Origin: an uncultured Lachnospiraceae bacterium
GTDB lineage: Bacteria > Bacillota > Clostridia > Lachnospirales > Lachnospiraceae
Assembly: GCA_946623875.1 (NCBI GenBank)
Contig: CAMORO010000004.1
Location: 2,997-66,996 of the forward strand
Direction of reading: 5' to 3'
DNA: 64,000 nucleotides
The notes under the pieces are model-generated. The model was not told the origin of the DNA and did no database searches. It saw only the letters and a list, made by a program, of their open reading frames with translations. A program made the position numbers and the translations under genes. Numbering within the stretch: the stretch's first letter is position 1; the number at the start of each line of letters is the position of its first letter. Of the stretch, positions 41,585-54,989 are shown piece by piece.

Positions 41585-42670
41585 TCAGTAAATGATCCTG
41601 TTTCTTCCTTCCGCTTTACCCTGATAGAGCTTGGAGTCCGCATGCTCTATGGTCTTCTGGATGCCGATGCTGTCATCGAATTCCTCGAGACCGAAGGTCA
41701 TTGTTACGTAGAAGGTGAAATCCTTGAATTTGAAGGTTGTTTTCTCTATCTGGTATTTAAGCTTGCTGAGCTGTTCATAAGCATAATCGCCGTTGTTGTT
41801 CTCGAAGGCGAACAGGAATTCCTCGCCGCCCCATCTTGCTATCCGTCCTTTGTCCTTCATGAAGTCATTGAACATCTTGCCCAGCTCGACGAGAACATAA
41901 TCTCCGGCATCATGGCCGTATGTATCATTGATCCGTTTGAAGAAGTCGATATCACTGAGTGCGAGAGCAAGTGTTCCTTCGCTGTTGCTGTCCTTGATAT
42001 AGCGGTCAAGATGATCCATCATGCCTCGCCTGTTGGTCAACTGTGTAAGCGGATCCATGGTTGCAAGCTTCTCGAGCTTCTTGGCGTATTTAACGATCTT
42101 GTGCTCGCTGGATGCGAACTTAAGATAGTAGAAGTTCGCGATGGTAACGAAGGTAACAGACAGATACAGCGTATCGGTAAGCACGATGCTTATGTCCTGT
42201 GAGTGGCTGAATTCAACAACCTTATCGGCGATCGTGAGATATACCCATATGCCTACTATTGCAACCGATATAATAAAGGAAACAACATATTTGATGGCGG
42301 GGCTGTCATCCGTCTTATAACAGAAAAGCAGTATAAGGGAATAAAGAGAAAACTGGAAGCCCGCCGTAGGACCAAGGGCAAACGAATACGCTATCATGGT
42401 AAACAGCATTGCCGCCGAGTATACAAATACGGTTCCCGAAGCATTGCTCCAATACGTCATCCACAGAATGAGCAGATAAGTAATGCTGAAAGCTATCGAC
42501 CAACGGTACAGGGCCGAATGCAATGATGTAGCAAAGAATAATGTCAGTATAAAATTAAAGAAAAAGTTAACAAGGCAGAGCATACGAATAAGTACCGAGA
42601 GATCACTTAACTGGTTCTCACCCGCCACGTCCTTGAACAGTAATTCTTTTACTTTGTGAAATACGGCCAT
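41585..42670 (-). CDS. Membrane-bound diguanylate cyclase (GGDEF domain, GGEEF active site)
   Basis: About 6 N-terminal TM segments, then DPLTQLTNRRG ... RWGGEEFLF. No RxxD I-site seen just upstream of GGEEF. Confidence 0.88.
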   Translation of the reverse strand: MAVFHKVKELLFKDVAGENQLSDLSVLIRMLCLVNFFFNFILTLFFATSLHSALYRWSIAFSITYLLILWMTYWSNASGTVFVYSAAMLFTMIAYSFALGPTAGFQFSLYSLILLFCYKTDDSPAIKYVVSFIISVAIVGIWVYLTIADKVVEFSHSQDISIVLTDTLYLSVTFVTIANFYYLKFASSEHKIVKYAKKLEKLATMDPLTQLTNRRGMMDHLDRYIKDSNSEGTLALALSDIDFFKRINDTYGHDAGDYVLVELGKMFNDFMKDKGRIARWGGEEFLFAFENNNGDYAYEQLSKLKYQIEKTTFKFKDFTFYVTMTFGLEEFDDSIGIQKTIEHADSKLYQGKAEGRNRIIY

Positions 42671-45842: not shown

Positions 45843-46412
45843 GTGAAAACCAGGAATATAATGATAGTAGGTGTCGGCGGACAGGGAACACTCCTTACGA
45901 GCCGTATCCTTGGAGGGATCATGCTTGGCGCCGGTTTTGATGTCAAGATGTCGGAAGTTCACGGAATGGCTCAACGCGGAGGCTCTGTCGTGACTTATGT
46001 CAGATACGGAGAGAGTGTTGCCGAGCCCATCGTGGAAGAAGGGCAGGCTGACGTCCTTATCGCCTTTGAGCAGCTTGAGGCCAAAAGATATGCGCATTTC
46101 CTTAAAAAGGACGGAGTACTTATAGTAAATACACAGCGCATAGATCCGATGCCTGTAGTCATAGGGCAGGCCGAATATCCCGAAGGCATAGTTGAAAGTC
46201 TTAAGAAGGAATACAGGGTTATTGATGTTGATGCGATGAGTGAAGCGCTTAAGCTCGGCAATCCAAGGGTATTTAATGTCATAGTCCTCGGAGTTGCCGC
46301 AAAGCACATGGATTTTGATAAAGAACAGTGGTTTGATGTGATTGAAAAGACTGTCAAGCCCAAATTCGTTGATCTTAACAAGCGGGCTTTCGAGACAGGA
46401 TACAATCTCTGA
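45843..46412 (+). CDS. iorB: Indolepyruvate oxidoreductase beta subunit
   Basis: IVGVGGQGTLLTSRILG and HGMAQRGGSV. GTG start 7 nt after AGGAG. Confidence 0.85.
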   Translation: MKTRNIMIVGVGGQGTLLTSRILGGIMLGAGFDVKMSEVHGMAQRGGSVVTYVRYGESVAEPIVEEGQADVLIAFEQLEAKRYAHFLKKDGVLIVNTQRIDPMPVVIGQAEYPEGIVESLKKEYRVIDVDAMSEALKLGNPRVFNVIVLGVAAKHMDFDKEQWFDVIEKTVKPKFVDLNKRAFETGYNL

Positions 46413-47490
46413 TAACATTTATCAGACGGTCGTTCATTTCCGGTGACATGAAGCACAGCCGGAAAAACCTGTTGTCAAGGAAAGGGAAGGTGCAGCAGTT
46501 TCTTATCATCATTTTACTGCGTATGCAGACATCGAACAGTATGTCGGCATTTACGCTTTCGTCTTCTGTCTTGACCAATACGAAGTTGGCTGAGGGCTCA
46601 TATACCTTGAGCCCTTTTATATTGGAAAGAGCATCGGTCACACGGGCTCTTTCGGTGCTTATAAGCTCTTTTGTATGTGCAATGTAATCTTCATCGGTGA
46701 ACATCAGCTTGCCGGCCTCCTCGGCCAGTGAGTTGATCGTCCACGGATTCTGCCTAGAGTTGATCGCCTTGATAAGATCCTTGTTGCCCGTGATGCCGTA
46801 ACCGAGGCGCAGACCGGGTGCGGCGAAGAATTTGGAGATCCCGCGAAGGATAATGATGTTGTTGTAGTATCTGGTCAGGGGAATACAGTTAACTTCGTCA
46901 TAGTTACTGGTGAATTCGATATAGGTTTCGTCCACCATTACAAATATATCGTTCTGTTTGCAGACATCAAGGATATTTCTCATGGTCTGTCTGGTGATAC
47001 AGGTGGAAGTCGGGTTGTTCGGATTGCATAGGATAAGAAGATCGATGCTTTCATTAAGCTGTGTTTCGAGCTTATCGTAATCAAGAGCGAATCCATCCTT
47101 TTCTCTTAGCGGGAAATAAAGGGAAGTGCCGCCTCCGAGCGAAACCTCGCGTTCGTATTCGGAGTATGTAGGTCCGATTATCAGGGCTTTTTTCGGGTGC
47201 TCAAGCTGTATGAACAGGGAGATGAGTTCGGTTGAACCGTTTCCGACAACAATATGTTCGGGCTCAGTACCGCAGTATCCTGCAATAACTTTTCGAAGAC
47301 CGAGGTATTCTCTGTCCGGGTAGGCGGTTATCACATCAAGATGCTCTGCAAGTGTTTCCCTTAGCCTGGGCGACAGTCCGAGAGGATTTACATTTGCCGA
47401 GAAGCTTACGATTTCGTTTCTGTTTATTCCGTATACCTGTTCGATCTTTTCGAGATCGCTGCCGTGAAAATGGTCTGAATGCTGTATCAT
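46375..47490 (-). CDS. Class I/II PLP aminotransferase (HisC/CobD-like)
   Basis: NPNNPTS, the PLP-Lys context GISKFFAAPGLRLGYG, and YPD. The 3' end overlaps convergent iorB by 38 nt. Confidence 0.8.
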   Translation of the reverse strand: MIQHSDHFHGSDLEKIEQVYGINRNEIVSFSANVNPLGLSPRLRETLAEHLDVITAYPDREYLGLRKVIAGYCGTEPEHIVVGNGSTELISLFIQLEHPKKALIIGPTYSEYEREVSLGGGTSLYFPLREKDGFALDYDKLETQLNESIDLLILCNPNNPTSTCITRQTMRNILDVCKQNDIFVMVDETYIEFTSNYDEVNCIPLTRYYNNIIILRGISKFFAAPGLRLGYGITGNKDLIKAINSRQNPWTINSLAEEAGKLMFTDEDYIAHTKELISTERARVTDALSNIKGLKVYEPSANFVLVKTEDESVNADILFDVCIRSKMMIRNCCTFPFLDNRFFRLCFMSPEMNDRLINVIRDCILSRKPAC

Positions 47491-47526
47491 TTATGTTTAA
47501 TCTCCTTGTGTGATTTATATCGGGTA

Positions 47527-47535
47527 TGGTATACT
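47527..47535 (+). promoter_or_regulatory. Extended -10 (TGgTATACT) upstream of the 4-gene operon
   Basis: tggtatact read directly, about 27 nt upstream of GTG 47562. Confidence 0.35.
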
Positions 47536-47561: not shown

Positions 47562-50500
47562 GTGGTGAGGAACTTGCATGAGATAGTAGATAAACTTGTT
47601 AACGGGTTTTTCGATTATGACAACGGAAAGCTCTCTTTTTCTGTGTCAAGAATTGAAGAGTCGCTTCCCGCAGGTGAGCTGTATGAAGGTTCCTTTACCA
47701 TTTTCAGCAGGGACTCGCTTCCTGTTTCCGGTAAGGTGTATACATCCAATATGAGGCTTGTCTGCCGTATCGACAGCTTTAATGCCAGCAGGGTGGATGT
47801 TGCATTTATGTTTGCAACAACCGGTCTTGAACCCGGTGATCTTATAAAGGGAGATGTCCAGATAGTATCAAACAAGGGTGAATACTACATTCCGTTTGCT
47901 TTTTCGATCGTAAGAAGCATTGTGAAGAATTCTCTGGGCAACGTAAAAAACCTGTTCCACTTTACCAATCAGGCACAGACGAGCTGGGATGAGGCGGTTT
48001 CTTTGTTCTATGCAAGGGATTTCGTTCAGGTCTTTGAGGGAAACGAACAGCAGAATCTTATCAAATACCGCGGATTTTCCAACAGGATCGGAAATGAGGA
48101 GAGTGTTGATGATTTCCTTATAGCCATAAACAAGAAGCAGCCCGTAATGTATTCCGTCGATAAGACATATCATGAACTTACCAATATTACCGAAACACTC
48201 AGATGTGAGCTGCCGATAAGGAAGTCGACATGGGGCTATGTGAATGTTAAAGCCACATCGGACAGCAGTTTTCTTCGTGTTGAAAAAGATACACTCACAT
48301 CAAATGATTTTCTCGGAAATGTACACCGTTTTGTCTTTTTTATTGAAGAAGACAGGCTTCATGAGGGCAGGAATTTCGGAAGGCTCATTTTCGAAAGCTC
48401 TCATCAGAAGCTGACCGTGACCATAGTTGCCTCCAAACGTATGAGTAATGAAGGCCTCAGGATAGAAAGACGTGAGAAACGTAACCTTACGATGCGTCTG
48501 ATGCGCTGTTATATTGCCTTCAGGACAAAGCATATAAGCGTTAATACATGGATAAGGGATTCGCTTAAAATAGTGGAACGTCTCAATGTTCTGGACGACA
48601 AGAATCCCGAATCAAGGCTTTTTCAGGCTCAGCTTCTGCTGGTTTCACAAAGATACAACGAAGCCAAGTGGATACTGGATCATGTTGCCAATGATCTTAA
48701 GATAATGAGGAAGGAACCGACCATATACAGCTACTATCTTTATCTGACAACTCTGTATATGCGGGATGATGCATATATAAATGAAAAGGCCGGGGAAGTA
48801 GAGGAACTGTATAAGGAAAACAGGGACGATTACAGGATATTGTGGACCCTTATGTATCTTGATGAGGATCTGTCAAACAATCATGTGCGTAAGATCGAAC
48901 TCATAGATGAACAGTATAAAAGGGGATGCCGCAGTCCCATCATATATGTTGAAGCCTACCAGTACTATGTGAATAATCCGGCCACGCTTACACGGCTGGA
49001 TGAAATGGAGATACAGATCCTTTACTGGGCAGCGAAGAACGGACTCATGAACAACGAACTGTGCAAGCAGATACTGTATATATGTGCGCGCACCAGGGAG
49101 TTTTCTCCAGCGCTGCTTAAGCTTCTTATAAAGATACATAAGATAAATGAAGATCCGGATGTGGTCAGTGCTATATGTTCCATGCTTATCAAGGCAAACA
49201 AGACCGACAGTGAGTATTTCGAATGGTACAGCAGGGGAGTTGAGCTTGAGCTGCGTATCACCAAGCTGTACGAGTATTATATGCTGTCCGTACCGATGGA
49301 TCATGAGGAACTTCTGCCCAAATCGGTGATCATGTATTTCGGGTTCAGAAATCATATGGATTATGTGCATCTTGCTTATCTGTATACCAACATGCTCAAG
49401 CACAGGATGGATATCCAGAAGCTGTGTGAGGAATATGAGCCTACCATGAAGAGCTTCGCCGAAGAACAGATCGCGGGAGGAAAGATAAACAGGGATCTTG
49501 CTTATCTTTATGAGCATGTCTGTCCGCCGCAGGAGGTTAAGCCCGATATGGTCAACGCGTTTGTGCGGCTGCTGTTCTCGGTGGATGTGGTTATTAAGGA
49601 TCCGGGGATCAAAAGGATATGTGTGATCCAGGAGGAGTTTGAGGGCGAAGGGATCTATCAGGTTGAGAACGGCCATGCATATCCCGAAGTGTACAGCAGC
49701 AGGTATATGGTGTTTGGCGAGGACGCAGACGGAAGGCGGACTGTGATCTCTCCCGAAAACATATCAAGACTTATGGATGAAACTCAGTATATTCCGTATA
49801 TCAAGAACTACGTAACAGACAATCCGGGCTTCAATCTGTATCTGTGCAACGGAAGAAGACATTATATAACTGTCGATGACAATAATGTCGAGTACTGCAG
49901 GAATCTGGTCGATTCCGTGGATATCAAGGAAAGTTTTAAGCGGGATGTCCGGATGGAACTTTTAAGGTATTACTATGATAACAATGCCATAAGCACGCTG
50001 GACGAGTTCCTTATAAATATAGATCCGTCCATACTGAGTGTAAAGGACAGGGCGGAGCTTCTCGGATACTTTGTTATGAGGGGCATGTATGAGGCTGCTT
50101 ATGAGATAGTCACTGTTTACGGCGCTGAAAAGGTTCCCGTTAAGACACTTGTCAGAATATGTTCGCATATGATAGGCAAGAAAGAGGAGCTTTATGACGT
50201 TATGCTCGTCAAGGTGGCTTATCATGCTTTCATTAAGGGCAAGTATGATGTGCTGACACTGCAGTATCTGGTCGACCACTTTAACGGCCTGACCAAGGAA
50301 CTGAGAAATCTGTGGAAAGCAGCCAGGGAGTTTGACGTTGATTATTTCCAGTTGATGGAGAAGCTGATCATCCAGATGCTGCTGACAAGGACAACAATAG
50401 GTGAAAAAGAGGAACTTTTTGAGGAGTATTTAAGGCAGGGACCCAATACAAGGGTCGAGCTTGCGTACCTTTCGTACAATGCCTACGATTACTTTGTAAA

Positions 50501-51128
50501 GGACAGGATGCTTGACGGCAGGATATTTGAACACATACTCAAGAATTACAGGAGGGGAGAAGAGTTAAATGATGCCTGCAAGCTGGCGATCCTCAAGCAT
50601 TATGCCGAGGAACGTGATGAGGAGAACGAAGAACTTAAGGAAATGATAGTTACTTTTCTTAAAGAGTATACACAGAGAAATATCTATTTTGAGTTTTTCA
50701 AAAGGTACACGAAGCTTTTACCGGGGCTTGCTGAGTATAATGATAAGACGATAATCGAATATAAGACCAATCCGGCTGCAAGAGTCAGATTACATTATAT
50801 TATAGAGAGCAACGAAATGGATGATAATTATCATACCGATGAAATGAGAAATATGTACGGTGGTATATTCTCACGGGAATTTGTGCTGTTTTTCGGTGAG
50901 AATCTCCAATACTATATTTCAGAGGAGCTTGATGGCAGGGAATCCTTTACATTCTCGGATTCGATATCGGTGTCGGATACCGTTTCGCAGATGGGAAGTT
51001 CCAGATATGCCCTGTTAAATGATATGGTAGTGTCCAAAACGCTTCAGGATGATGATACACTGATGCAGCTGATGGAGGAATATGTCACTGATGAGTGTTT
51101 TGCGGAAAGTGTGTTCACCTGTATTTAG
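47562..51128 (+). CDS. Uncharacterised 1188-aa cytoplasmic protein (beta-rich N-terminal modules, about 750 aa helical-repeat-like core, beta-rich C-terminal module)
   Basis: A long uninterrupted ORF with genome-typical codon usage. No signal peptide or TM and no catalytic motif that I recognise. The start codon is uncertain (GTG 47562 with a weak SD). Confidence 0.8.
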   Translation: MVRNLHEIVDKLVNGFFDYDNGKLSFSVSRIEESLPAGELYEGSFTIFSRDSLPVSGKVYTSNMRLVCRIDSFNASRVDVAFMFATTGLEPGDLIKGDVQIVSNKGEYYIPFAFSIVRSIVKNSLGNVKNLFHFTNQAQTSWDEAVSLFYARDFVQVFEGNEQQNLIKYRGFSNRIGNEESVDDFLIAINKKQPVMYSVDKTYHELTNITETLRCELPIRKSTWGYVNVKATSDSSFLRVEKDTLTSNDFLGNVHRFVFFIEEDRLHEGRNFGRLIFESSHQKLTVTIVASKRMSNEGLRIERREKRNLTMRLMRCYIAFRTKHISVNTWIRDSLKIVERLNVLDDKNPESRLFQAQLLLVSQRYNEAKWILDHVANDLKIMRKEPTIYSYYLYLTTLYMRDDAYINEKAGEVEELYKENRDDYRILWTLMYLDEDLSNNHVRKIELIDEQYKRGCRSPIIYVEAYQYYVNNPATLTRLDEMEIQILYWAAKNGLMNNELCKQILYICARTREFSPALLKLLIKIHKINEDPDVVSAICSMLIKANKTDSEYFEWYSRGVELELRITKLYEYYMLSVPMDHEELLPKSVIMYFGFRNHMDYVHLAYLYTNMLKHRMDIQKLCEEYEPTMKSFAEEQIAGGKINRDLAYLYEHVCPPQEVKPDMVNAFVRLLFSVDVVIKDPGIKRICVIQEEFEGEGIYQVENGHAYPEVYSSRYMVFGEDADGRRTVISPENISRLMDETQYIPYIKNYVTDNPGFNLYLCNGRRHYITVDDNNVEYCRNLVDSVDIKESFKRDVRMELLRYYYDNNAISTLDEFLINIDPSILSVKDRAELLGYFVMRGMYEAAYEIVTVYGAEKVPVKTLVRICSHMIGKKEELYDVMLVKVAYHAFIKGKYDVLTLQYLVDHFNGLTKELRNLWKAAREFDVDYFQLMEKLIIQMLLTRTTIGEKEELFEEYLRQGPNTRVELAYLSYNAYDYFVKDRMLDGRIFEHILKNYRRGEELNDACKLAILKHYAEERDEENEELKEMIVTFLKEYTQRNIYFEFFKRYTKLLPGLAEYNDKTIIEYKTNPAARVRLHYIIESNEMDDNYHTDEMRNMYGGIFSREFVLFFGENLQYYISEELDGRESFTFSDSISVSDTVSQMGSSRYALLNDMVVSKTLQDDDTLMQLMEEYVTDECFAESVFTCI

Positions 51129-51150
51129 GCCGGTATAGTGCGGAGGATAA

Positions 51151-52479
51151 ATGGATAACAGTACACGGTATGTTGTGGGTTACGATCTGAATGACCTGCT
51201 CACACAGATCAGCTATTTTGAACTGAATAATGATGATCCGAAGACACTTGTTTCAGACGGTGAAAACGAGAGGCTGGGCATCCCGACGGTGTTATGCAAG
51301 AGGAAGAAGGTCAATCAATGGAGCTTTGGGACTGAAGCTACAAGGCTTATCATGAATGATGAGGGAGCCGAGGTTAACAAGCTCCTGACACTTGCGCTTC
51401 GCTCGGGAAGCATAACTATAGATGGTGAGGAATTCAACGGGATAGATCTTCTCATACTGTTTATGAGGAAATCCCTTGATCTGTTGTCGGTATATGTGGC
51501 AGTGGATCAGATTGAGTCACTTGTTATTTCCGTTCAAAAGCTCGATCGTGAAATGCTGGCGGTTCTTGAGAGAGTGGCTGCCGCAATACCGGTGGAACGG
51601 GCAAAGATACTTTTCTTAAGCTACAGTGAGAGCGTATATTATTATATGATCCATCAGCAGAGTGAGCTCTGGGATCCTGAATGCGTTGTATTTGACCATG
51701 ACGGAAGGAATATAATGTCATACCATATGAGGCTGAACCACAGGACGACGCCGGTAGTGGGCATGATCGACGAACAATTGTTCAGCAATTATCCGGTTCC
51801 AGAGAAAAAGGTGACTTATGAAGATGAGGACTCCGGTGGCGATACAGGCGGTAAGGCTGATGCCGAATATGAGGAACAGGTGGAGGTTTCCGATAAAAGG
51901 CTGCATGATATGATGCATGATTTCCTTATGTCAAGGCCGATCCGTTCGGTATATCTGCTGGGAGCAGGGTTTGACGGTGAATGGTGCAAAAAGACTATAG
52001 GCTTTCTGTGTGTCGGAAGACGCGTGTTTCAGGGAAGGAATATGTATTCGAAGGGCGCCTGTTACTTCGGCATGGACAGGCTTATACCGACAAAGCTTAA
52101 CGAGGATTATCTGTTCCTTGGTAAGGACAAGCTTCAGTTTAACCTCGGGATCCTGATGGACAGAGGCGCCAAAGAGGAATATATAGCACTTGCGGATGGC
52201 GGTGAGAACTGGTTTGATATCGGTACCGAGGTGGAATTCATACTTGCGGGGGGCAGTAAGGTCGATCTGATTGTTACACCCCTTGACGGTAAAGCCGTAA
52301 GAACGGTATCGATCGGACTTGACGGTCTTCCGGGCAGGCCGCCCAAGACTACCAGACTTAAGATGAATGTGGGCTTTCAGTCGGGCAGTAAGGTCAAGGT
52401 TGTGATAGAGGATCTTGGATTTGGTGAGATCTTTCCTGCCACGGGTATGAGATGGGAACAGGAGACTGAGATAGAGTAA
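51151..52479 (+). CDS. Hsp70/actin-fold homologue with degenerate nucleotide-binding loops and an Hsp70 SBD-beta-like tail
   Basis: VVGYDLNDLLTQISY aligns with the DnaK IGIDLGTTNS motif. IPTVL and FGTEA follow. ECVVFDHDGRNIMSY aligns with DLGGGTFD, and VYLLGAGFDGEW with LVGGSTRIP. The C-terminal LPGRPPKTTRLKMNVGFQSGSKVKVVIEDLGFGE aligns with the PRG.PQIEVTFDID.NG motif. RBS GCGGAGGA upstream. Confidence 0.65.
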   Translation: MDNSTRYVVGYDLNDLLTQISYFELNNDDPKTLVSDGENERLGIPTVLCKRKKVNQWSFGTEATRLIMNDEGAEVNKLLTLALRSGSITIDGEEFNGIDLLILFMRKSLDLLSVYVAVDQIESLVISVQKLDREMLAVLERVAAAIPVERAKILFLSYSESVYYYMIHQQSELWDPECVVFDHDGRNIMSYHMRLNHRTTPVVGMIDEQLFSNYPVPEKKVTYEDEDSGGDTGGKADAEYEEQVEVSDKRLHDMMHDFLMSRPIRSVYLLGAGFDGEWCKKTIGFLCVGRRVFQGRNMYSKGACYFGMDRLIPTKLNEDYLFLGKDKLQFNLGILMDRGAKEEYIALADGGENWFDIGTEVEFILAGGSKVDLIVTPLDGKAVRTVSIGLDGLPGRPPKTTRLKMNVGFQSGSKVKVVIEDLGFGEIFPATGMRWEQETEIE

Positions 52480-52494
52480 AGGGAACATACGAAT

Positions 52495-53337
52495 ATGTCC
52501 AATCTTTTATTGTGCCATGGTAAGATGGCGGACAAACCATATAATGTTACCGGGCTTTCCGTAAATGTTTATTCCGCTGAGGAACTGTGCTATGTTCTTG
52601 CACAGAATGCACATACGCTTGACAGGGATTTCATGGTAGAGTCTCTGTGCAGCTTTATCGGCGAACAGCTCGGGCTTAAGGAGCTTGCCGCAAAGCTTCG
52701 GGAAATCATCGAAATTGACGGCAGTCTTACTGATTTTGTTACAGCCATATTGACGGAGGTTGCATACTGCGATCAGGATGAAATAAGAAATGTAAAACAG
52801 ATACTTATTGACAGTTCCGGGTTGAGCCCCGCAAGAAAGCACAAGAGCCGGGGAGACAATCTTCTTAAGGCAAGGCGTTATGCGAGGGCGCTGGACGAGT
52901 ACAGGGGAACACTTGACCGGATAGATCCGGATGCGGAACCGGTGTTATATGCGTCGGTACTGCACAATACGGGTACGGCTTATGCCAGGCTTCTGACTTA
53001 TGAAAAAGCCGCGGAATGCTATCTTGAGGCTTACAGACTCAGTATGGATGATGATACGTTGAAGCTGTATCTTGTCTGCTGCCGCATATATATGGATGAT
53101 GACGAATACAAACGTATGCTGATAAGATGCGGTTATCCTCAGGATATCATAAATGAGGCCGAGCAGATCGTGGCTAAAAGGACAGAATACAGGGATCCGC
53201 AGAATTCATATGTAAAGGAGCTTGAGGAGCTCAAGGCTCTTAAAAAAGAGGGAAGGATAAGCAGTTACTATATAGCTGTCGATCAGACCATAGACTCATG
53301 GAAGAATGACTACAGGATGGAGATGATCCTTCATTAG
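52495..53337 (+). CDS. Uncharacterised 280-aa protein with a TPR-like helical pair
   Basis: GDNLLKARRYARALDEYRGTL ... LHNTGTAYARLLTYEKAAECYLEAYRL resembles two TPR units. Tightly coupled within the operon. Confidence 0.6.
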   Translation: MSNLLLCHGKMADKPYNVTGLSVNVYSAEELCYVLAQNAHTLDRDFMVESLCSFIGEQLGLKELAAKLREIIEIDGSLTDFVTAILTEVAYCDQDEIRNVKQILIDSSGLSPARKHKSRGDNLLKARRYARALDEYRGTLDRIDPDAEPVLYASVLHNTGTAYARLLTYEKAAECYLEAYRLSMDDDTLKLYLVCCRIYMDDDEYKRMLIRCGYPQDIINEAEQIVAKRTEYRDPQNSYVKELEELKALKKEGRISSYYIAVDQTIDSWKNDYRMEMILH

Positions 53338-53349
53338 GAGGAGATGCCG

Positions 53350-54582
53350 ATGAGGTTATTTGACTTTATAAAGGAAAAGCTCGGTTTTGACGATGATGAT
53401 GAGGATGATGATCTTGACTTTGGCGCGGGAATGACCTTTGATGAGGGAGATGACGATGATGCCGAAGAGATCCGTGAGAAGCTGAAGAGGACAGGTATTA
53501 AGCTTGCCGACATCAATATCCTTGATTACCGTGAAAGAGAGCTCTACGTCAGGGATAAGTGTGAGATGATGAAGGCGGCGGCCGATGATCTTAAGGGCCA
53601 GCGTCACGAATATGAAAGGGTCACCCAGCAGCTTGCCGATATTGATGAGGTCTGCGCTCTGTCACTGACTCAGTTTTCCGAACTGGTCAGACTAGCCAAG
53701 CGTATAGAGAAGATTGAGGAAGATGAGGAGAAGTATGAACGTCCGCTCACCAAGATAACAGAAGCCCAATATCGTGATATAGAGCGGCGGGAGAAGGAAA
53801 TACCGGATGTTATAAAGAAGATAAAGGCTGAAGAAGACCATCAGATGACAATAAAGCGGGATCTTAACCTGCTCGAAGGAGAGAAGGGTGCTCTGGCTTA
53901 TCAGCGCAGAGAGGACAGACACCGGGCTGCAAATGCCAAGGCATTTGCCTTTGTGGCTACACTCGTATCCGTGCTGGCCGCTGCGTTACTGTTTATCCTG
54001 CAGATGACACTTAACTTTGATGTGCGTATAGGGTATTATGTGGTGCTTGCCTTTTTCTGTCTTGCACTTACGGGGGTGAGCGTTACATTTAAGAATTCGC
54101 AGGATTCGCAGGTGAAGACGGAGAAGAAGATCAATAAAGCGATAACGCTGCAGAACAGCGTCAAGATAAAATATGTCAATACGACAAATCTCATTGATTT
54201 CTACTATACAAAGTACAATATCAACAATTCCTATGAGCTTAACTATATGTGGGAGAAATACCTTGAAGAGAAGGCTGCCAGGCATCATTCCGAAGAGGTT
54301 GCCGAGAAAATAGAGAAAGCAAGGAAAGAACTGATAAACGAACTGAGGAAATTCAGGCTTAACGATCCCTCGATGTTCGTATACAGAACAGAGCTTCTGA
54401 CTGATGAAGATGTAATGCAGGATGTACGCCGTAAGCTCATTATACAGAGAAAAAAGCTTAAGAAAGGCATGGATTTCAACAATTACAGTATGGATAATTC
54501 AAAGGAAGAGATCGAGGCACTGGTCAGGGAGTATCCGAAGTTTGGTAACGAGATACTGGCAATAGTGAGTCAGTATCAGTAA
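53350..54582 (+). CDS. Uncharacterised coiled-coil membrane protein (poly-acidic N-terminus, 2-TM hairpin)
   Basis: DDDDEDDDLDF..DEGDDDDAEE near the N-terminus. Heptad-like Lys/Glu-rich stretches. TM segments FAFVATLVSVLAAALLFIL and YYVVLAFFCLALTGVSV. ATG 53350 is better spaced from AGGAGGAG than the listed 53344. Confidence 0.7.
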   Translation: MRLFDFIKEKLGFDDDDEDDDLDFGAGMTFDEGDDDDAEEIREKLKRTGIKLADINILDYRERELYVRDKCEMMKAAADDLKGQRHEYERVTQQLADIDEVCALSLTQFSELVRLAKRIEKIEEDEEKYERPLTKITEAQYRDIERREKEIPDVIKKIKAEEDHQMTIKRDLNLLEGEKGALAYQRREDRHRAANAKAFAFVATLVSVLAAALLFILQMTLNFDVRIGYYVVLAFFCLALTGVSVTFKNSQDSQVKTEKKINKAITLQNSVKIKYVNTTNLIDFYYTKYNINNSYELNYMWEKYLEEKAARHHSEEVAEKIEKARKELINELRKFRLNDPSMFVYRTELLTDEDVMQDVRRKLIIQRKKLKKGMDFNNYSMDNSKEEIEALVREYPKFGNEILAIVSQYQ

Positions 54583-54635: not shown

Positions 54636-54989
54636 TCAACTGTCGGATATCCTCTGTTCGAAATCGTCGAGCATTTTGGATACCCGGGGAGATATAGAAA
54701 CAAACTCGCACCCGTAGCGGTAGCGGTTATCATCGATCGCCTGTGAGCGGATGATCCTTATATCGGTGATGATCTGCGGAAGCTCGCGATCCAGTTCGAT
54801 ATTTGAGATAAATATACAGCCTATGGGAAGGACGGCATCCGATATAAATCCCAGTCCTTTGGCCGAAATGTCAGTGACTTCGATAGGTGCCGATATGTCC
54901 AGCAGTGTATTTGAGCTTTCCGTATATAAGTCTGACACCGAAAGCTTTATATTGATCGGTATTCTTTTTTCTTTGCGTTTTTCGTGCAT
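54636..54989 (-). CDS. Single-domain PilZ c-di-GMP receptor
   Basis: RxxxR (RKEKR) and DxSxxG (DISAKGLG) motifs at the expected spacing. 117 aa. Confidence 0.8.
   Translation of the reverse strand: MHEKRKEKRIPINIKLSVSDLYTESSNTLLDISAPIEVTDISAKGLGFISDAVLPIGCIFISNIELDRELPQIITDIRIIRSQAIDDNRYRYGCEFVSISPRVSKMLDDFEQRISDS

Follow-up and report, generated by a model that had tools for sequence, protein, structure and literature searches.

A conserved four-gene module of Lachnospiraceae centred on a lidless Hsp70-fold protein, with a proposed scaffolding role at the cytoplasmic membrane

In a stretch of 64,000 nucleotides (nt) from an uncultured Lachnospiraceae bacterium (GenBank assembly GCA_946623875.1, contig CAMORO010000004.1, positions 2,997 to 66,996; here called the window and numbered from its first letter), we examined four adjacent open reading frames (ORFs), designated g1 to g4. 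Our preferred reading, to which we assign a probability of about 0.5, is that these genes form one operon, vertically inherited within the Lachnospiraceae, whose products make up a non-enzymatic complex at the cytoplasmic face of the membrane around g2, an adaptor with the fold of Hsp70 that would be a pseudo-ATPase. On the forward strand, g1 occupies 47562-51128 (1188 amino acids, aa), g2 51151-52479 (442 aa), g3 52495-53337 (280 aa) and g4 53344-54582 (412 aa), with gaps of 22, 15 and 6 nt between them, as the ORF list confirms for an earlier description of the same DNA (hereafter the first-pass annotation). That description had also tentatively placed such proteins among DUF families of Clostridia, which Pfam identifies as DUF5717 (g1) and DUF5716 (g2). 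The families of g1 and g2 are therefore already catalogued, and g3 and g4 represent two previously uncatalogued partner families. NCBI naming is merely “DUF5716/DUF5717 family protein”, and profile and fold searches placed the set in no characterised system.

The cohesion of the four genes is evident from their distribution. When a single genome of each GTDB species was scanned with two peptide patterns from g2, 70 loci were obtained, and all that were titled to family or genus belonged to the Lachnospiraceae, along with a few metagenome-assembled genomes (MAGs) labelled just Bacillota, Clostridiales or “bacterium”. Carriers comprise rumen and gut MAGs, Kineothrix alysoides, Galacturonibacter soehngenii, Konateibacter massiliensis, Anaerobium acetethylicum and Acetatifactor, and also include Butyrivibrio and Eshraghiella crossota loci. 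By tblastn, the order g1-g2-g3-g4 and the strand were the same in every one of these loci with enough sequence, g4 being missing solely in locus L068, and the order held from 98% down to 29-35% identity; co-occurrence of the four genes thus extends to ~30% identity, far outside close relatives. Seven further loci reached by other routes also possessed the module, with g4 missing solely in L076. Each fetched locus carried one copy, and intergenic gaps among orthologous loci were mostly -4 to 30 nt. Most loci are syntenic, with an aminotransferase gene upstream and PilZ, purB and purA downstream, and this shared position suggests vertical inheritance of the module. It was also found intact in other contexts: by valS and MgsA in Eshraghiella (Butyrivibrio) crossota, by UvrD in L074, and by GntR/ABC genes in Kineothrix. 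Searched against 1.84 billion cluster representatives, the g2 profile matched 1598 clusters (50% identity) at E <= 0.001, with 1100 of these at E <= 1e-10 and 617 at E <= 1e-30.

The central component, g2, matches Pfam DUF5716_C (PF18980) over model positions 2-295 of 296 (E 6e-93; 311 bits against a cut-off of 34.7). An AlphaFold2 model of g2, generated from a 61-sequence alignment (predicted local distance difference test, pLDDT, 84.6; predicted template-modelling score, pTM, 0.72), comprises a nucleotide-binding domain (NBD; ~aa 1-325) followed by the beta sandwich of a substrate-binding domain (SBD-beta; ~aa 328-442), which is the actin-like NBD and SBD-beta order of canonical Hsp70s. Foldseek comparison of this model with the PDB returned DnaK, BiP, Hsc70 and Ssz1 over both NBD and SBD-beta (E 1e-17 to 1e-12, probability 1.0), with DnaK alignments spanning ~510-540 columns. 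The top matches, to lidless or docked forms and to Ssz1, included 7kru_A (E 1e-17), the lidless 5obv (1.5e-16) and Ssz1 (6sr6_C; 6e-15) at 10-15% identity, and the lid-truncated DnaK constructs 7kru, 5obv and 5obu were all among them. Sequence methods gave no such match: searches with 16 homologues found no Pfam HSP70, MreB or FtsA match at E <= 5, and neither a single-sequence nor a profile search of the PDB returned a match. Alignment of the g2 profile (hhalign) to an E. coli DnaK sequence covered 39 SBD-beta residues at E 0.18, and a C-terminal strand motif, L-x-G-[LI]-P...R-[LI]-x-[VL]-x-F...D-x-G-F-G, matches the corresponding DnaK segment without being significant alone. Judged on the predicted model, the relationship of g2 to Hsp70 is detectable by structure comparison only and not by sequence, which bears out the “degenerate Hsp70-like” label of the first-pass annotation.

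Sequence divergence within this fold is concentrated at the features required for an ATP cycle. The window's g2 reads DLND instead of DLGTT, and FDHDGRN instead of DLGGGT. Across 148 representatives of the g2 family, the phosphate-1 motif is G-[YIF]-[DE]-[LI]-[GNSC]-[DNE]-x where DnaK has DLGTT; the phosphate-2 motif is [DE]-[YF]-x4, with the Gly-rich loop lost; and the expected region holds no invariant Lys and no conserved counterpart of DnaK K70. None of the three nucleotide motifs of canonical Hsp70s (D-x-G-T-T, D-x-G-G-G-T and the catalytic Lys) is therefore present, with residues mapped from g2 to DnaK by motif order rather than by residue-level structural alignment. Among the same representatives, the most strongly conserved residues are those that close the NBD (RRVFQGxNxYSKGA) and those of SBD-beta (GENW, DLGFGE) rather than those of the nucleotide pocket. 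In the model, a disordered acidic loop leads into a single helix (233-259), to which subdomain IIB is reduced, and the chain stops at residue 442, straight after the last SBD-beta strand (434-440), such that the helical lid (SBD-alpha) is missing. No gene for a J-domain or GrpE-like protein turned up in domain scans of the operon and its flanks, and g2 thus lacks both membership of PF00012 and a linked J-protein or exchange factor. These features suggest that g2 is a lidless Hsp70-fold pseudo-ATPase that would lack ATPase activity, at most an atypical structural Hsp70 and not a DnaK-type chaperone.

For g3, conservation among 69 orthologues defines an N-terminal domain with a PY...YS.EELCY motif, a pair of tetratricopeptide repeats (TPRs) at ~aa 119-186, and a helical tail. 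The TPR-like pair noticed in the first-pass annotation was recovered as TPR_2 (E 4e-5) and TPR_12 (E 1e-3) matches, both under Pfam cut-offs; no family could be assigned, an NCBIfam scan gave nothing meaningful, and hhalign found no relationship between g3 and g1. Direct partnership of g2 and g3 is indicated by natural g2::g3 fusions of 685-765 aa, which occur in six 50%-identity clusters (6 of the best 150 g2-profile matches) and constitute Rosetta-stone evidence. Residues 445-711 of one fusion, P0376, align with g3 at 37% identity (E 6e-52). Fusion carriers include Butyrivibrio sp. NC3005 (WP_026504008.1), a Butyrivibrio MAG and the human-gut “Firmicutes bacterium CAG:194”, whose fusion belongs to a 90% cluster of 1109 members, and in fusion genomes the operon order is g1, g2::g3, g4. 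A mode of contact like that of eukaryotic TPR co-chaperones docking onto an Hsp70 tail, as had been raised initially, is not supported: g2 C-termini vary (..EIE, ..RIV, ..EIF, ..EFT), have no conserved EEVD-like motif and are internal in the fusions, and g3, with only ~2 TPR motifs, does not have the three-TPR carboxylate clamp of Hop and CHIP.

The largest protein, g1, matches both DUF5717 models above the gathering threshold and over nearly its full length (PF18984 and PF18983; DUF5717_N, E 6e-290, 964 bits; DUF5717, E 9e-102, 341 bits; cut-off 25 for each). Its AlphaFold2 model (pLDDT 85.7, pTM 0.56) consists of two immunoglobulin (Ig)-like sandwiches (aa 24-117 and 197-292) separated by a helical insert (aa 131-188), a TPR-type superhelix of ~375 residues (aa 297-671), a middle beta domain (aa 673-736), a second helical solenoid (aa 744-1059), a C-terminal beta sandwich (aa 1063-1138) and terminal helices (aa 1148-1187). 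This architecture agrees with the beta-rich ends and helical-repeat core described previously and adds the middle beta module to them; the hydropathy profile likewise agrees that g1 has no hydrophobic or transmembrane segment. Foldseek related the N-terminal ~290 aa to tandem Ig/ASH/PapD/BACON-type domains, and the core to the TPR scaffolds Ski3, Naa15, IFT-A, Ctr9 and SPY (E ~1e-6 to 1e-5, template-modelling scores ~0.1), a likeness of the predicted model that is at the level of fold only. Against viral structures, Foldseek gave generic tandem Ig/BACON matches only, and no PDB match to g1 was returned by sequence or profile search.

Hydrophobic segments are confined to g4, which has two, while hydropathy profiles of g1-g3 show none. 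The g4 protein begins with a predicted amphipathic motif, M-[RGK]-[LI]-[FIV]-D-[FW]-[IL]-K-x-K-L-G-F (nt 53350-53388, + strand), defined from the N-termini of 60 orthologues and kept even in the most distant of them. Seen in the same N-termini and in the charge profile of g4, an acidic/aromatic tract continues to ~nt 53472, and this is followed by a charged helical region, the two hydrophobic segments (aa ~198-247, nt ~53935-54084), which would form a two-transmembrane (2-TM) hairpin, and a charged helical C-terminal region. A juxtamembrane block, LQNxVKIKYVNxTNL, is highly conserved. Since basic residues border the hairpin on both sides, g4 is predicted to be held in the membrane by this hairpin and to have both of its ends on the cytoplasmic side, in keeping with the acidic N-terminus and central 2-TM hairpin recognised in the first reading of the sequence. 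Searches of Pfam, NCBIfam and the PDB assigned g4 to no family and gave only weak matches of coiled-coil or transmembrane composition; 44 homologues searched against Pfam matched weak transmembrane-hairpin families only, e.g. DUF2207_C and DUF6594. We speculate that MSP/ASH-like Ig domains in g1, whose Foldseek matches are only of generic Ig type, might recognise the acidic/aromatic tract as an FFAT-like motif.

Co-variation of the four proteins was assessed by mirror-tree comparison, in which the distance matrices of g1-g4 correlate at r 0.90-0.96, and at partial r 0.87-0.93 when controlling for the flanking aminotransferase or purB; these values are supportive and not probabilities, and they are weakened by the non-independence of the pairs and by slow flanking genes being poor controls. 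Correlations of g1-g4 with the flanking aminotransferase or purB reached just 0.35-0.61, and g1-g4 evolve ~2x faster than the aminotransferase and ~5x faster than purB. Together with the g2::g3 fusions, this co-variation supports the view, taken in the first-pass annotation, of the four genes as one unit.

Examination of other lineages also revealed recurring neighbours of the module. HtpG (Hsp90) is encoded 5' of it directly in Butyrivibrio sp. NC3005 (L075, 822-2951) and ~4 kb away in Kineothrix alysoides (L054, 288-2372); this adjacency may signal a chaperone link, or nothing more than synteny. Envelope and polysaccharide genes often stand beside the module (L023, 13347-19324; L077, 1003-5279 and 14936-17102; L071, 3060-4319), an apparent association among the neighbours observed. 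Those confirmed by Pfam are a polysaccharide deacetylase, NAGPA phosphodiester glycosidases, a GT2-GtrA protein and a PG_binding_1 protein, and a DegT-like aminotransferase, a GT2 enzyme and an ATP-grasp enzyme were recognised by eye from N-terminal sequences in L023. In the two loci lacking g4, g3 is followed by a HAD hydrolase gene (L068, 3536-8543) and by a SAICAR synthase gene (L076, 8291-9874). Gene tables of the other loci showed no client gene conserved beside the module.

We propose that g2 would be a descendant of Hsp70 that keeps the NBD fold and the peptide-binding beta sandwich, and that would serve as a permanent adaptor or peptide clamp, much as Ssz1 does, with no ATP cycling. 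Bound directly to g2 would be g3, and g1 would provide a 137-kDa platform whose tandem Ig-like sandwiches and two TPR-type solenoids could offer large protein-binding surfaces. Anchoring of the complex would fall to g4, with its N-terminal amphipathic peptide and acidic/aromatic tract as the most likely dock for the soluble parts, in a manner comparable to the N-termini of PilN, FtsN and RodZ on actin-fold proteins. Complex formation beyond g2-g3, the mode of membrane docking and the lack of ATPase activity are what we infer, and our best guess for the process served is the organisation of a cell-envelope or membrane-associated process in vegetative cells. The membrane-tethered, chaperone-like or scaffold machine suggested by the first-pass annotation therefore survives in part: with the nucleotide loops and lid lost family-wide and neither a J-protein nor an exchange factor linked, the evidence favours a static adaptor or scaffold over an ATP-driven chaperone.

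Several observations weigh against this proposal, in addition to the limits of the mirror-tree values given above. Residues D12, E160 and D182 of g2, by motif position the likely counterparts of DnaK D8, E171 and D194, are largely conserved, which leaves room for a non-canonical nucleotide or metal site. For g1, a pTM of 0.56 makes the inter-domain arrangement uncertain, and Foldseek template-modelling scores are ~0.1; for g3, the TPR matches fall below Pfam thresholds. Also, g4 is not adjacent to g3 in L068 (an Acetatifactor MAG) and L076 (GCA_949283755.1), and a g4 hidden Markov model found no match on either contig. Given its absence beside g3 in these two lineages, g4 is the least fixed member of the module, and the membrane anchor may be dispensable or encoded elsewhere, such that the 2-TM hairpin agrees with the originally proposed tether while an obligatory one is unsupported. 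Finally, literature searches found no paper on a DUF5716/DUF5717 module.

The same g2 features could also be accommodated by a dedicated chaperone or assembly factor, an unlikely yet credible alternative in which SBD-beta would bind clients either as a holdase that needs no ATP or with the help of a non-canonical nucleotide site, and g2 with the TPR proteins g1 and g3 would fold, hold or deliver one client, e.g. a membrane or envelope protein, at g4. TPR modules are classic partners of Hsp70s, and g2 not only has the NBD and SBD-beta fold but is most conserved in the SBD-beta loops and at the NBD-SBD junction, and keeps its three acidic residues (D12, E160, D182). Such a role is however difficult to reconcile with the family-wide loss of the phosphate loops, lid and most of IIB, and with the lack of a linked J-domain or GrpE-like gene, of a conserved EEVD-like tail on g2 and of a conserved client gene beside the module; the HtpG genes upstream in Butyrivibrio NC3005 and Kineothrix, which would fit a chaperone, are adjacent in these two lineages only and may reflect plain synteny. 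A membrane-associated polymer, coat or cytoskeletal lattice, in which g1 would self-assemble on the membrane via g4 with g2-g3 as assembly adaptors, and which would shape or compartmentalise the membrane or position envelope machinery, seems to us rather doubtful. The combination of beta sandwiches and long alpha-solenoid in g1, the g4 hairpin anchor flanked by long charged helical arms, and the absence of enzymes would all suit a lattice, as would a vertically inherited core-genome module with the fast, coordinated sequence evolution typical of structural proteins. Yet generic TPR scaffolds, and no coat or cytoskeletal protein, are what Foldseek matched, and the literature searched contained no description of such an ultrastructure for Lachnospiraceae; the envelope genes observed to flank the module often in other lineages may favour a lattice too.

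An anti-phage or abortive-infection system, in which g1-g3 would detect infection and set g4 free, and the 2-TM hairpin of g4 would then oligomerise and permeabilise the membrane like CBASS-type 2-TM effectors, appears improbable. Its support comes from the fast evolution of g1-g4, from the weak score of g4 (E 0.0016) against a “2TM effector” model in PADLOC-DB 2.0, and from CnuD, a defence protein that joins a degenerate Hsp70-like domain to helical repeats (PMC11090510). The g4 match is however at composition level only, and PADLOC-DB gave no match for g1-g3. Pfam and NCBIfam revealed no McrB/McrC, nuclease, NTPase or other effector domain in g1-g4, nor did Pfam, NCBIfam, PADLOC or the PDB yield a catalytic-family match. 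The combination of a component match with a variable or mobile location that marks defence systems in PADLOC-DB is not seen here, and the promoter is of housekeeping type by consensus. A plasmid search gave no match to the module. Matches to g2 were found in five GenBank entries labelled “Bacteriophage sp.”, which derive from human faecal viromes (MT835486.1, MT835719.1, MT835988.1, MT837634.1 and MT837190.1). The one examined, MT835486.1 (the other four being weaker matches), holds the whole module (L077, 5332-12180) flanked by valS, MgsA, a polysaccharide deacetylase and glycosidases; a phage origin was rejected, as the presence of valS, MgsA and envelope enzymes and the identity of its proteins to those of Eshraghiella crossota identify it as a mislabelled fragment of the E. 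crossota chromosome. The lack of a plasmid match, this mislabelled record, the PADLOC null, and a single copy per locus at a mostly syntenic housekeeping position, consistent with vertical descent and not with variable islands, together argue against a defence island. Fortuitous adjacency of four unrelated genes can be given next to no weight and is effectively refuted by the conservation of order in 70 loci down to ~30% identity and in differing flanking contexts, as well as by the g2::g3 fusions, the tight or overlapping gaps and the co-variation of the four proteins.

Inspection of translation signals suggests that the longest-ORF rule probably mis-sets the starts of g1 and g4. The region 47564-47576 reads GGTGAGG-AAC-TTG, a GGTG(A) and TTG/GTG layout that is kept across clades when sequences upstream of g1 are compared, and g1 homologues annotated by NCBI are 1183-1184 aa; TTG 47574 (1184 aa) is hence the more likely start of g1 than GTG 47562. 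The ribosome-binding sites are GGAGG for g2 (5 nt 5' of its ATG), AAGGGA for g3, and AGGAGG for g4, located 2 nt 5' of ATG 53344 and 8 nt 5' of a second ATG at 53350. The latter is most likely the true start of g4 (410 aa, with a gap of 12 nt to g3) because of this spacing, the invariance of Met3 in an alignment of 44 sequences, and a 99% identical database protein of 410 aa. The Shine-Dalgarno sequences reported initially for g2-g4 therefore stand, and the weak one at GTG 47562 is explained by a true g1 start that is probably TTG 47574. Upstream lies a putative sigma-A-type promoter (47506..47535, + strand) with a -35-like TTGTGT (47506-47511), an 18-nt spacer and an extended -10 element TGgTATACT (47527-47535), which was read directly from the sequence and is absent from a consensus-scanner listing. 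A TGnTATACT/TATAAT element occurs at variable distance 5' of g1 in most orthologous loci. By consensus alone, the promoter is predicted to be of housekeeping type, and the operon is probably expressed constitutively. In a rumen clade (L019-L029, L043, L055, L056) we observed a well-conserved block, ttgatatactgatttggtatgctaatgtgccc..ttataccact..gcgtcaaaa, ~40-110 nt 5' of g1, which is absent from the window's clade and may represent divergent promoters or a regulatory site.

The flanking genes encode housekeeping metabolism (IorA/IorB, class I and class IV aminotransferases, purB, purA and thyA), in agreement with the location among amino-acid and purine genes, convergent with a PilZ gene, noted in the first-pass annotation. 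This stand-alone PilZ protein (117 aa; 54636-54989, - strand) is encoded directly 3' of g4 in many related loci; elsewhere, 2-6 kb of inserted genes intervene, and it was not detected near the module in distant lineages. Considered as a fifth member of the module, PilZ, apparently a syntenic neighbour, was rejected on account of its opposite strand, its frequent separation by inserted genes and its non-detection in distant lineages. Also identified was a GGDEF diguanylate cyclase gene (41585-42670, - strand) 5 kb 5' of the operon. Among longest-ORF calls, an iorB-like gene (45843-46412, + strand) and a convergent class I/II aminotransferase gene (46375-47490, - strand) overlap by 38 nt at their 3' ends. 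Base composition is unremarkable, and scans of the whole window found neither a tRNA gene nor any Rfam family reaching the gathering score. Across the window GC skew is positive, and almost every long ORF lies on the + strand, the pattern to be expected of leading-strand DNA in a Bacillota chromosome.

In the human colon and the rumen, the Lachnospiraceae rank with the most abundant bacteria, and many of them carry the module as a conserved part of the core genome. Were the scaffold reading true, the short list of static structural Hsp70s (Ssz1, CnuD) would extend to a core module of gut anaerobes, a possible pointer to new Lachnospiraceae cell biology. Should the doubtful lattice instead prove true, a dead Hsp70-TPR unit (g2-g3) would recruit g1 to g4 in a lineage-specific membrane architecture, and a bacterial Hsp70 would have turned into a purely structural subunit in a dominant gut and rumen family. 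Cultured carriers are available in Eshraghiella crossota, Butyrivibrio sp. NC3005, Kineothrix alysoides, Anaerobium acetethylicum and Konateibacter massiliensis.

Comparison with known systems places the module beside several of them. With DnaK and other Hsp70s (PF00012), g2 shares the actin-like NBD followed by the SBD-beta sandwich; it differs in being only 10-15% identical, in having a reduced IIB and no DLGTT/DLGGGT loops, K70 counterpart, lid or EEVD tail, and in having no linked J-protein or GrpE partner. In PilM-PilN, FtsA-FtsN and MreB-RodZ, a cytoplasmic actin/Hsp70-superfamily protein is tethered to a membrane partner by binding the short, conserved N-terminal segment that this partner exposes to the cytoplasm. 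The conserved N-terminal peptide of g4 is likewise suggestive of such tethering, by analogy only, since no homology between PilN/FtsN/RodZ-type pairs and the module was found, and g4 differs in being a 2-TM hairpin with both ends predicted to be cytoplasmic. Large TPR scaffolds (Ski3, Naa15, Ctr9, IFT139, SPINDLY) organise multi-protein complexes and possess a superhelical platform like the predicted helical core of g1. At 10-13% identity and template-modelling scores of ~0.1, however, none of them combines its solenoid with the N-terminal Ig, middle and C-terminal beta domains of g1.

The best functional analogy for g2, an analogy and not orthology, is Ssz1 of the eukaryotic ribosome-associated complex (Ssz1-Zuo1), an atypical Hsp70 that is a stable structural subunit and whose SBD holds a partner peptide as a pseudo-substrate (title of PDB 6sr6). 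The partner of Ssz1 is a J-domain protein on ribosomes, whereas g2 would have a membrane anchor and TPR/Ig proteins as partners, in which no J domain was found; no link of the module to ribosomes is known. In the published literature, the nearest counterpart is CnuD of Type III CoCoNuT (PMC11090510), in which helical repeats are attached to a degenerate Hsp70-like NBD/SBD; the g2::g3 fusions share this outline, the comparison being one of description, not of sequence. CoCoNuT systems are defined by an McrB-type GTPase and an McrC/DUF2357 partner, with nucleases and coiled-coil proteins (PMC11090510), whereas neither an McrB-like NxD GTPase nor McrC/DUF2357 was found in g1-g4, the ten flanking genes scanned or the gene tables of other loci, and the module resides in the core genome and not in a defence island. 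Undescribed in its composition and membrane anchoring, the module is thus akin to Hsp70-derived, non-cycling adaptor complexes with TPR partners.

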